A stretch of 64,000 bases of DNA from Nannocystis bainbridge. Its GTDB lineage: Bacteria; Myxococcota_A; Polyangia; Nannocystales; Nannocystaceae. Shown here piece after piece: positions 33,417 through 34,736 of this stretch. The stretch's first letter is position 1, and each line of letters opens with the position of its first letter. The position numbers were made by a program, and so were the translations under genes. Location: NCBI RefSeq assembly GCF_028368995.1, contig NZ_JAQNDL010000002.1, positions 609,724-673,723 of the forward strand, in the 5' to 3' direction. Below the pieces are notes generated by a model. That model was not told the origin of the DNA and did not search any database. It worked only from the letters and a program-made list of their open reading frames with translations.

Positions 33417-34736
33417 ATGAGCTTAAATGATGTGCGCCGTCGTCTGCCCGTGGTCGCCTCGTTGCCGGTGCCGGCCAACCGCTGGCTGAGCCACGACGAT
33501 CGGCGCGAGGCCCGGGCGCCGCGCTGGGCGGTGTGGGAGCTGACGCTGGCGTGCGATCAGCACTGTGCGCATTGCGGGCCGCGGGCGGGCCACAAGCGGC
33601 CCGACGAGCTGTCGACCGAGGAGTGCCTGAAGGTGGTGCGCGAGCTGGCGGACCTCGGCTGTGGCGAGGTGGTGCTGATCGGCGGCGAGGCGTACCTGCG
33701 CAACGACTTCATCCTCATCATCCGGGCCATCCGCGAGGCCGGGATGGCGTGCACGATGACGACCGGGGGCCTCAACCTCAGCGAGGAGCGGGCGGCGGCG
33801 ATGATCGAGGCCGGCATCGGCAGCGTGACCTTCTCGATCGACGGGCTCGAGGCGACCCACGATCGCCTGCGCGGGGTGAACGGCAGCTGGCAGCGGGCGT
33901 TCGCGGCGATGCGGCGGATGCGGGCGGCCGGCGGCAAGATCGCCAGCAACACCCAGATCAACGCGCTGACCCGCCACGAGCTGCTGCCGCTGTTCGAGCT
34001 GCTGGCCGACGAGGGCATCCATTCGTGGCAGCTGCAGATCACGGTGCCGCACGGCAACGCGGCCGATCACCCGGAGATCCTGCTGCAGCCACACATGTTC
34101 ATCGACATCTTCGCCACGCTCGATCAGGTGCTCGACCGCTGCGAGGCGCGCAAGGTCCGGCTGTGGCCCGGCAACAACCTCGGCTACTTCGGCCCGCTCG
34201 AGCGGCGACTGCGGCAGTCGCAGCGCAAGCACTGGCGCGGCTGCACGGCGGGGGTGTCGGTGATGGGCATCGAGAGCGACGGAGGGATCAAGAACTGCCC
34301 GAGCCTCGGCGGCGGCACCAACATCGGCGGCAACTGGCGCGTGCACGGGGTCAAGAAGGTGTGGGAGGAGTCGTATCAGCTCGGCTACATCCGCGCGCGC
34401 ACGATCGACGACCTGTGGGGCTATTGCCGCGAGTGCTACTACGCCGAGACGTGCATGGCCGGCTGCACCGCCGCCGCCGAGCCGCTGCTGGGCCGGCCGG
34501 GCAACAACCCGTTCTGCCACCACCGCGCGGTGATGATGGATCGCGCCGGGCTGCGCGAGCGCATCGAGCAGGTCCGCGGCGCCGGCGGCAAGTCGTTCGA
34601 CAACGGGCTGTTCCGGGTGATCCGCGAGCACGCCGATCCGGCGCTGCGCGAGCAGCACGGGCCGGTCGCCATCGAGGAGCCGCGGGTGTCGCGGCTTGAA
34701 GAGCCGTACGGGGCGGGGCGCACGGTCACGCTTTGA
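33417..34736 (+). CDS. Radical SAM enzyme with C-terminal SPASM domain (peptide/protein-modifying maturase type)
   Basis: CDQHCAHC radical SAM cluster motif, GGE motif (VVLIGGEAY), C-terminal SPASM cysteines (CPSLGGG ... CRECYYAETCMAGC). Confidence 0.8.
   Translation: MSLNDVRRRLPVVASLPVPANRWLSHDDRREARAPRWAVWELTLACDQHCAHCGPRAGHKRPDELSTEECLKVVRELADLGCGEVVLIGGEAYLRNDFILIIRAIREAGMACTMTTGGLNLSEERAAAMIEAGIGSVTFSIDGLEATHDRLRGVNGSWQRAFAAMRRMRAAGGKIASNTQINALTRHELLPLFELLADEGIHSWQLQITVPHGNAADHPEILLQPHMFIDIFATLDQVLDRCEARKVRLWPGNNLGYFGPLERRLRQSQRKHWRGCTAGVSVMGIESDGGIKNCPSLGGGTNIGGNWRVHGVKKVWEESYQLGYIRARTIDDLWGYCRECYYAETCMAGCTAAAEPLLGRPGNNPFCHHRAVMMDRAGLRERIEQVRGAGGKSFDNGLFRVIREHADPALREQHGPVAIEEPRVSRLEEPYGAGRTVTL

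Follow-up and report, generated by a model that had tools for sequence, protein, structure and literature searches.

What does a radical SAM/SPASM maturase act on when no precursor peptide is encoded beside it? The question is raised by a locus of Nannocystis bainbridge (Myxococcota, Nannocystaceae), which lies in a stretch of 64,000 nt (contig NZ_JAQNDL010000002.1, positions 609,724 to 673,723; 72.9% GC), referred to below as the window. The enzyme gene of this locus was regarded as an orphan in a preliminary description of the DNA, and an MVP homolog and a zinc-ribbon protein with Tyr-containing repeats were named there as the nearest candidate substrates. The best overall explanation, with a probability of roughly 0.55, is that the enzyme works as a splicease-type maturase on Tyr residues in the tail of the zinc-ribbon protein, hereafter the partner protein. 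The features of this pair are as follows, in window coordinates.

33417..34736, + strand: radical SAM/SPASM enzyme gene (ATG start, 439 aa), splicease-like and without a zinc ribbon of its own
35013..35579, - strand: gene of the partner protein, the predicted substrate (188 aa: zinc ribbon, hydrophobic segment, and Thr/Asp/Ser-rich tail)
35493..35579, - strand: zinc-ribbon module of the partner, residues 1-29 (C7xxC10...C21PFC24), matched by the zn4 profile described below
35424..35492, - strand: basic stretch and hydrophobic segment ending in ...LGAAC52 (from hydropathy), a lipoprotein-type signal or signal-anchor
35253..35270, - strand: motif 1, T104-Y-A-G-P-D109, a near-invariant island in the orthologous-clade alignment and predicted modification site
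35109..35126, - strand: motif 2, T152-Y-A-G-P-D157, a predicted modification site from the same alignment
35037..35054, - strand: motif 3, T176-Y-A-G-A-D181, restricted to Nannocystis sensu stricto

The enzyme and its zinc-ribbon partner

The enzyme is of the class first assigned to it, that of radical SAM/SPASM maturases with a CDQHCAHC motif, a GGE motif, and a C-terminal Cys array. The Pfam Radical_SAM model matches it at E=1.4e-24 (87.6 bits), the cluster motif CDQHCAHC occupies residues 46-53 (C46/C50/C53; CX3CX2C), the SAM-binding motif GGE occupies residues 89-91, and seven Cys follow the SPASM pattern (C276, C294, C337-x2-C340-x5-C346-x3-C350, and C367); the Pfam SPASM model gave no match at E<=0.01. 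The gene begins with atgagcttaaatgatg, and the start call is considered correct because the encoded N-terminus, MxLxDxRRRLPVV, is conserved across 50 homologs. The closest protein match, at 96% identity, comes from Nannocystis pusilla and is likewise a radical SAM protein, the NCBI product name reads only 'radical SAM protein', and no second copy (paralog) of the enzyme was found within the window.

The genomic context was compared across loci obtained by scanning one genome per species, which gave 80 loci, or 81 including the window, and the methods comprised tblastn of the window neighbours, all-against-all clustering of open reading frames (ORFs) of at least 40 aa, and searches with hidden Markov models (HMMs). 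The window and 17 further loci, with enzymes of 76-96% identity, constitute the orthologous clade. As the preliminary description had stated, neither flank of the enzyme gene holds a small precursor ORF: six-frame reading gave only Arg-rich, off-frame junk, and no conserved small ORF emerged from clustering among the 81 loci, clusters 1-3 being antisense artefacts inside the radical SAM gene. A hidden precursor ORF was rejected on these two grounds.

By contrast with this null result, a protein-coding partner is recurrent, and the zinc-ribbon protein with TYAG repeats gained support as the candidate substrate. At least one zinc-ribbon partner gene flanks the enzyme in 47 of the 58 Myxococcota loci, with the nearest copy less than 500 bp away in 41 loci and up to four copies per locus. 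The genes of the radical SAM enzyme, the partner, and an HTTM-domain membrane protein stand together in 17 of the 18 orthologous loci, while the outer flanks on both sides vary between genera; at one of these loci (L013) the HTTM gene lies upstream and the zinc-ribbon gene follows the radical SAM gene co-directionally after 63 nt, with the trio still together. Furthermore, the Nannocystaceae clade contains numerous paralogous branches; each Nannocystis genome has three or more, and most branches have zinc-ribbon partners of their own. These partner genes are often directly upstream or downstream of the radical SAM gene and co-directional with it (directly upstream at L017-L020, L030, L042, and L044), and the pairing is present in each paralog subclade having at least one partner-bearing locus. 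In the reciprocal direction, a profile of ribbon plus signal gave six matches among 5.8 billion proteins, a low number explained by the shortness of the profile and the size of the database. The two that were looked up, both on long contigs, lie directly downstream of a radical SAM gene of the same family, which is frameshifted in both assemblies and for that reason lacks a Pfam label; two loci thus form the basis of the reciprocal test.

The tails of the partner proteins are low-complexity and fast-diverging, and their Tyr residues stand out from this background. The tail of the window protein has 136 residues and three Tyr, all of them within ATYAGPDEDW, STYAGPDEEW, and STYAGADEPW, and T-Y-x-G-P-D at 104-109 and 152-157 constitutes the only conserved tail columns in the orthologous-clade alignment; in motif 2, T152, Y153, and G155 are invariant and P156 and D157 are conserved at 90% or more. 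Among 66 unique partner tails, 57 contain Y[AG][AG], and 89 of the 128 tail Tyr lie inside this motif, versus 5% expected. At these 89 sites, position +2 is Gly in 70 and position +3 is Pro in 73. The extended form Y[AG][AG]P has 63 occurrences in the partners (11,844 aa) against three in the remaining ORFs at these loci (141,958 aa), an enrichment of approximately 250-fold, and Y[AG][GA]P[DP] occurs in the window only within 35013..35579 and nowhere else in any frame. The residue before the motif Tyr varies with the radical SAM subclade (T, D, A, F, or P, and V/L in Polyangiaceae), which is the pattern that enzyme-substrate co-evolution would give. Orthologs at L009, L011, L013, and L014 have T-Y-G-G, and other subclades have D/A/P/V/L-Y-G. 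The radical SAM enzyme and the zinc-ribbon protein are thus very probably related as enzyme and substrate.

Family placement and the choice of chemistry

The best NCBIfam match of the window enzyme is TIGR04103, 'nif11-class peptide radical SAM maturase 3' (425.4 bits, model positions 5-387 of 412), followed by TIGR03913, 'GDL motif peptide-associated radical SAM/SPASM maturase' (413.6 bits, nearly full length). The curated cutoffs are 725 bits for TIGR04103 and 591.75 bits for TIGR03913, and the enzyme belongs to neither curated family because its scores lie far under both (425 vs 725 and 414 vs 592 bits). All other NCBIfam families remain at or below 150 bits, including StsB, SkfB, WgkB, ScmE/F, PqqE (80 bits, cutoff 381), MftC (104, cutoff 265), AhbD (137, cutoff 500), and NirJ (104, cutoff 515), and anSME was not among the best 25 matches. 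When a neighbour-joining tree was rooted with a radical SAM enzyme of Agathobacter (33% identical), all Nannocystaceae enzymes formed one clade (99 of 100 bootstraps) inside the TIGR04103+TIGR03913 group, the branching order within which is not resolved by the tree. The window enzyme is a third, uncurated sister lineage of splicease-type maturases, confined to Nannocystaceae; with its strong TIGR04103 and TIGR03913 matches and its conserved zinc-ribbon partner, it is no longer an orphan.

Annotated plasmid members served as reference enzymes in place of validated splicease sequences. The plasmid enzyme of Nostoc annotated as TIGR04103 is 45% identical to the window enzyme, and its gene is flanked by a Nif11 precursor ending in ...IALYGLPPELF and by a 71-aa Y-like ORF. 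The TIGR03913 enzymes of Azospirillum and Burkholderia pseudomallei are 45-46% identical, and a radical SAM enzyme of Aureibacter, annotated only as 'radical SAM protein', is 43% identical and has the same locus type as the TIGR03913 enzymes; DUF1843/DUF1842 genes carrying P/A/M-Y-G precede all three (L082, L083, and L085). InterPro entry IPR026482 is taken here to correspond to TIGR04103. PlpX, the founding tyramine splicease, is a member of IPR026482 (PMC11002830). No Pfam or NCBIfam model covers the partner protein or the Nannocystaceae enzyme clade, and a full-text literature search gave no paper tying spliceases to myxobacteria or zinc ribbons. The survey of Scott et al. 2022 (Chem 8:2659), which later papers describe as holding 939 predicted systems (PMC10533398) from 189 genera (PMC10849128), lay outside that search, and an earlier listing of the Nannocystaceae genes there is possible.

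Tyramine spliceases act at X-Y-G and remove 135.06 Da per site (PMC11626197). They are the nearest characterised relatives of the window enzyme, and the earlier expectation of a cross-linker with a shift of -2 Da is therefore probably wrong. The validated PlpA splice tag, PIRPLYGLPI, likewise reads Y-G-x-P (PMC10533398), and a core Y-small-x-P is common to the partners, the PlpA tag (...LYGLP...), and the Nostoc precursor. The TIGR04103 spliceases of spliceotide pathways, type I (PlpX/PcpX) and type II (RhaX/RcsX/RasX), resemble the Nannocystaceae system in several respects: a CX3CX2C radical SAM domain with SPASM in the enzyme that is the best NCBIfam match here; target-like sites around an invariant Tyr with small residues and Pro at +3; often multiple sites and precursor paralogs per locus; and recognition through an extra element, which may be a trans-acting Y protein or part of the leader of the precursor (PMC11414181). 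The substrates differ, since those of spliceases are Nif11/NHLP peptides (PMC10849128, PMC11414181), whereas the Nannocystaceae precursor is a zinc-ribbon protein of 150-350 aa, membrane- or lipid-anchored. Unlike spliceases, moreover, the system of the window has an HTTM partner and no PqqD-like Y protein, and the +1 residue is Ala in Nannocystis.

The structural comparison was made with an AlphaFold2 model of the enzyme (50 homologs in the alignment; mean predicted local distance difference test score 89.2, predicted template modelling score 0.90). Foldseek matches to this model comprise PqqE (6c8v), SkfB (6efn), SuiB (5v1t), BlsE (7vob), and anSME (4k37), with E values of 2.6e-15 to 1e-10, target-length-normalised template modelling scores of 0.56-0.75, and identities of 15-23%. 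The five share the fold with the window enzyme but differ in substrates and chemistry, and none is a splicease. In addition, residues ~378-420 of the model form a confident beta-rich subdomain after SPASM (strands 379-387 and 398-405, helix 408-414), which did not align with the solved SPASM enzymes.

The same pair might undergo another reaction at or near the conserved Tyr, of the kinds carried out by other SPASM maturases (SuiB, SkfB, PqqE, and the epimerase PoyD): cross-linking through a C-C, C-O, or C-N bond, epimerisation, beta-hydroxylation, or a different edit of the backbone. Such chemistry would agree with an enzyme that misses both curated cutoffs and forms a clade of its own, with nearest solved folds that are cross-linkers and oxidases (PqqE, SkfB, SuiB, and anSME), with the frequent Trp after the motif (PDEDW), and with the sites in the window, all three of which are T-Y-A-G and not the canonical Y-G. 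The family scores point the other way (425 and 414 bits for the splicease-type families), as does the invariant core Y-small-small-P, which is that of PlpA and the Nostoc precursor; neither Trp nor Glu after the motif is conserved, since L009 and L011 read TYGGPDSL. A three-residue cyclophane would need a C-beta at +2, where Gly prevails, and this cross-link was rejected. Other chemistry on the same pair is thus regarded as somewhat unlikely, and splicease chemistry, given the pairing, as moderately favoured.

The zinc-ribbon gene might also be a mere syntenic neighbour of the enzyme gene, with the true substrate encoded elsewhere or with a small-molecule cofactor as the product. Homologs in Plesiocystis and Enhygromyxa are labelled 'heme biosynthesis protein', after AhbD/NirJ, and AhbD, NirJ, and NirJ2 are weak matches of the window enzyme, but the AhbD and NirJ scores given above stay far from their cutoffs and no sulfatase, PQQ, mycofactocin, or heme genes were found near the enzyme in the 80 loci. 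The finding that would have refuted the preliminary description, a consistent context of sulfatase (anSME), PQQ, or mycofactocin genes at homologs, was thus not observed. With respect to synteny, the trio in the window lies on alternating strands and is not an operon, and a partner was not found in the fetched flanks of 11 of the 58 Myxococcota loci; the pairing nevertheless survives the rearrangement at L013, recurs across the paralog subclades, and is recovered by the reciprocal search. This alternative is considered quite improbable.

The movable ribbon and a proposed maturation route

Profile comparisons show a homologous ribbon in three arrangements: as part of the enzyme, as an ORF of its own, and as part of the partner protein. 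The zn4 HMM, built solely from Nannocystaceae partner N-termini, has the product of 35013..35579 as its sole match in the window (E=8e-17), and it also matches the fused C-terminal ribbons of the Azospirillum enzyme WP_012977192 (E 5e-9) and the Burkholderia enzyme WP_004200682 (E 8e-9) and stand-alone ribbon ORFs (E 1e-6 to 4e-3). A stand-alone ribbon ORF of 65 aa matches TIGR03913 model positions 420-469 (E=6e-8), which in the curated family are the C-terminus of the enzyme itself. The hhalign probability of ribbon homology is 96.7%, for ribbons that are short and for two sets that were both pre-selected on Cys spacing. The window enzyme is ribbon-less; its TIGR03913 match stops at model position 392 and its last Cys is C367.

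The TIGR03913 systems (rad_SAM_trio; Azospirillum, Burkholderia pseudomallei, and Aureibacter) share with the Nannocystaceae system a ribbon of the CxxC...CP[FH]CG type, and their partners carry P/A/M-Y-G near a helical domain, with L-Y-A-A and M-Y-A-A also in Aureibacter. They differ in that the ribbon is the C-terminus of the enzyme there (a separate ORF overlapping the stop in L053-L077) and the N-terminus of the partner here, and in that DUF1843/DUF1842 was found neither in the window nor at any Myxococcota locus. DUF1842/1843 proteins were still of 'unknown function' in 2024 (PMC10994174).

Several observations concern these related loci. The separate ribbon ORF of ~65 aa was seen at 20 loci of Sphingomonas, Thermoanaerobaculia, and Bradyrhizobium (among L053-L077), in another frame and with an overlap of ~8 nt with the radical SAM stop, for example at L055 9199-9396; either the gene is truly split and its two parts are translationally coupled, or the frameshift site is conserved. 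The TIGR03913-like loci also encode upstream peptides of ~75 aa (L055 7767-7979, cluster 8) with K-Y-G-D-[LI]-D-G-L-I near the C-terminus. These peptides, which are missed by Pfam DUF1843, read F-Y-R-P where DUF1843 has P-Y-G-P when lined up by eye, and DUF1843 copies in Aureibacter (L085 2183-2896) read L-Y-A-A, M-Y-A-A, and P-Y-G-A. Across the ~75-aa peptides and the DUF1843 copies, Tyr alone is constant.

A movable activating element is known from spliceases, in which a helix resides in the Y protein (type I) or in the precursor leader (type II) and also works when engineered onto the enzyme (PMC11414181). By this parallel, the ribbon would dock on the radical SAM enzyme and recruit or activate it, and it is put forward as a putative docking and recognition element.

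The remainder of the partner protein suggests a location outside the cytoplasm. C7, C10, C21, F23, C24, and C52 are invariant in 25 aligned, diverse partner N-termini, and Cys52 closes the hydrophobic stretch, after which the sequence is rich in G/S/D. Of 57 lipobox-like sites in the partners, 54 have A/G/S at position -1 and 23 have L at position -3; the box of the window protein is G-A-A-C, versus the lipobox [LVI][ASTVI][GAS]C, and a folded ribbon of ~30 aa precedes the signal. Because basic residues lie on the ribbon side of the hydrophobic segment, the tail is predicted to be extracytoplasmic and lipid- or signal-anchored. Partners are considered proteins and not peptides, since some run on into a Cys-rich extracellular domain (L028, L029, L042, and L044). 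This domain, CDPFAQDCPxGEKC..., has no Pfam match and follows, depending on the locus, either a zinc ribbon, lipobox, and FYAGPD linker or a plain lipoprotein signal (L028 3953-4972 and 6475-7542; L029 1832-3725 and 4828-5739; L042 6962-7987; L044 7184-7987; L016 15850-16812).

A maturation route can be proposed on this basis. Briefly, the 188-aa partner protein would be translated with its N-terminal zinc ribbon, and the ribbon would engage the cytoplasmic radical SAM enzyme in a role like that of the Y protein for PlpX or the leader helix for RhaX, and like the putative role of the fused C-terminal ribbon in TIGR03913 enzymes. The enzyme would then act on Tyr105, Tyr153, and Tyr177 in the disordered acidic tail before export. 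The most likely reaction would be excision of a tyramine equivalent (C8H9NO, 135.06 Da; PMC11626197), which would turn the Thr before each Tyr into an alpha-keto-beta-amino (ketoamide) residue. Subsequently the tail would be carried across the membrane by the hydrophobic segment and its lipobox-like Cys, giving a lipoprotein or a signal-anchored protein, and outside the cytoplasm the co-inherited HTTM membrane protein may process the tail further. Export of the tail is inferred from the signal.

A number of points weigh against splicease-type maturation of the partner tail, beyond the missed cutoffs, the T-Y-A-G sites, the alternating strands, and the loci without a partner that have been given above. 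The partner has no Pfam or NCBIfam match, and its N-terminus is a zinc ribbon and not a Nif11/NHLP leader; no PqqD-like Y protein was found beside the enzyme among the 81 loci. Because many of the counted loci are related by descent, they cannot be treated as independent events. With an extracytoplasmic tail and a cytoplasmic enzyme, modification must precede export. The PDB holds no splicease structure for comparison of active sites, and an AlphaFold2 model of an artificial partner-enzyme fusion, a weak test, gave no docking signal and was uninformative (local confidence ~70 for the ribbon and below 30 for the whole tail) because the substrate half was modelled without an alignment and the output contains no contacts.

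A wider proposal, possible but clearly less secure than the route for the single pair, is that Nannocystaceae possess a native, protein-scale set of spliceases with at least three enzyme-substrate pairs per Nannocystis genome, a portable ribbon, envelope-anchored products bearing ketoamides at Y-G or, unusually, Y-A sites, and, in one clade, a follow-up step outside the cytoplasm by a vitamin-K-carboxylase-like HTTM enzyme. As of a 2022 review, spliceases had been shown active only by heterologous co-expression, and the final products in native hosts were elusive (PMC9811515). If the splicease reading is true, culturable predatory bacteria would be a natural source of splicease substrates in the form of a large family of membrane- or lipid-anchored proteins, the splice motif would be widened from Y-G to Y-A, and a ribbon of 25 residues moving between enzyme and substrate would be the natural counterpart of engineered leader-enzyme fusions. 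It would also open a testable way into the roles of HTTM proteins in bacteria and of the DUF1842/DUF1843 proteins in Burkholderia. Ketoamides inhibit Ser and Cys proteases (PMC11626197); ketoamides in envelope-protein linkers would therefore be potential protease-trapping warheads, and a protease-related envelope function is conceivable as speculation.

Neighbouring genes and intergenic DNA

Three further features adjoin the pair.

30753..33248, + strand: MVP homolog gene (831 aa; MVP_shoulder 5.9e-30, Vault_3, Band_7/SPFH)
34737..35012, no strand: convergent intergenic region (276 nt) with REP-like (repetitive extragenic palindromic) units at 34872-34931 and no ORF of the system
35658..38081, + strand: gene of the HTTM-domain membrane protein (807 aa, polytopic; Pfam HTTM PF05090)

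The HTTM gene is divergent from the zinc-ribbon gene across a 78-nt spacer. Its product scores 32.9 bits with Pfam HTTM against a gathering score of 27.7 (30.6 and 38.0 bits for orthologs) and has ~12 hydrophobic segments; it has no sequence match to any PDB chain and no match to the NCBIfam SdpB family at E<=0.01. Among the 81 loci, the gene is present in 17 of the 18 orthologous loci and nowhere else, and the protein is a co-inherited accessory and candidate second-step factor. HTTM-domain proteins include the vitamin K-dependent gamma-glutamyl carboxylase and Bacillus SdpB, which is needed to mature the SdpC toxin. The window neighbour is likewise polytopic, and the secreted or anchored protein with which it is associated probably undergoes post-translational modification. 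Carboxylation of Glu in PDE(E/D)W by the HTTM protein was rejected, because the Glu after the motif is not conserved in orthologs.

The MVP gene precedes the enzyme gene on the same strand with a gap of 168 nt, which agrees with the co-directional order first described, and modification of the MVP homolog by the enzyme was the other substrate relation suggested there. The closeness and direction of the two genes, an arrangement kept in five Nannocystis genomes, would fit such a relation, and the MVP homolog contains one K-Y-G-D and two Y-A-V sites. One Y-G among ~27 Tyr is the chance level, however, and the protein has neither a zinc ribbon nor the conserved motif of the partners. When co-occurrence was compared across genomes, a check put forward earlier for both candidates, the zinc-ribbon gene was found at 17 of the 18 orthologous loci, whereas MVP adjoins the enzyme at only six (including the window), all of them Nannocystis sensu stricto; it is adjacent neither at the 12 other orthologs (76-85% identity) nor at any paralog. 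A tblastn search against the 80 loci likewise placed MVP only in Nannocystis proper. The MVP gene is a recent neighbour of the enzyme gene with no sign of a link, the link was rejected, and MVP as the substrate is highly improbable; if the pairing with the zinc-ribbon protein is true, the bacterial MVP homolog drops out as a suggested radical SAM substrate.

The intergenic region downstream of the enzyme gene was correctly described as built of REP-like repeats. It contains three copies of a palindromic unit of ~17 nt, AAGGACATGTCCTT, at 34872-34931, plus GC-rich inverted repeats, and a scan of 33150-35750 for promoters and terminators found no consensus. The core GGACATG occurs 62 times in the 64 kb (37 on the + strand and 25 on the - strand), mostly in intergenic DNA. 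The palindromic intergenic element centred on GGACATGTCC resembles REP or miniature inverted-repeat transposable elements; its copies are often paired or tripled, 14 or 28 nt apart (8527/8555/8583, 9615/9629, 9679/9693, 26326/26340, 28917/28931, 45345/45359, and 52976/52990), and it gives rise to recurring 'RTCP..GH' peptides in spurious ORFs.

Other neighbours vary. Ser/Thr kinases and Cys-rich lipoproteins adjoin some paralog loci and are not consistently linked. The last 10 kb of contig NZ_NETK01000001.1 of N. exedens (L049) contain, right at the contig end, another MVP-rSAM-ribbon-HTTM-KGGVGR block that is degraded and full of frameshifts; rather than a real duplication, it probably reflects overlapping ends of a circular chromosome in the assembly. 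In the window, a KGGVGR-motif variant AAA ATPase fused to TPR repeats is encoded at 38533-40215 on the + strand (NF047398, 94.6 bits, above the cutoff), and this gene adjoins the trio only in Nannocystis sensu stricto. A dehydrogenase of the Glu/Leu/Phe/Val type is encoded at 28947-30035 on the - strand, with tryptophan dehydrogenase ScyB as the best NCBIfam match (167 bits vs a cutoff of 600). Furthermore, 42196-43965 on the - strand encodes a full PSD2/PSD3/PSD4/PSD5/PSCyt3 set (DUF1585/1587/1592/1595/1588), a Planctomycete-type series in a myxobacterium.

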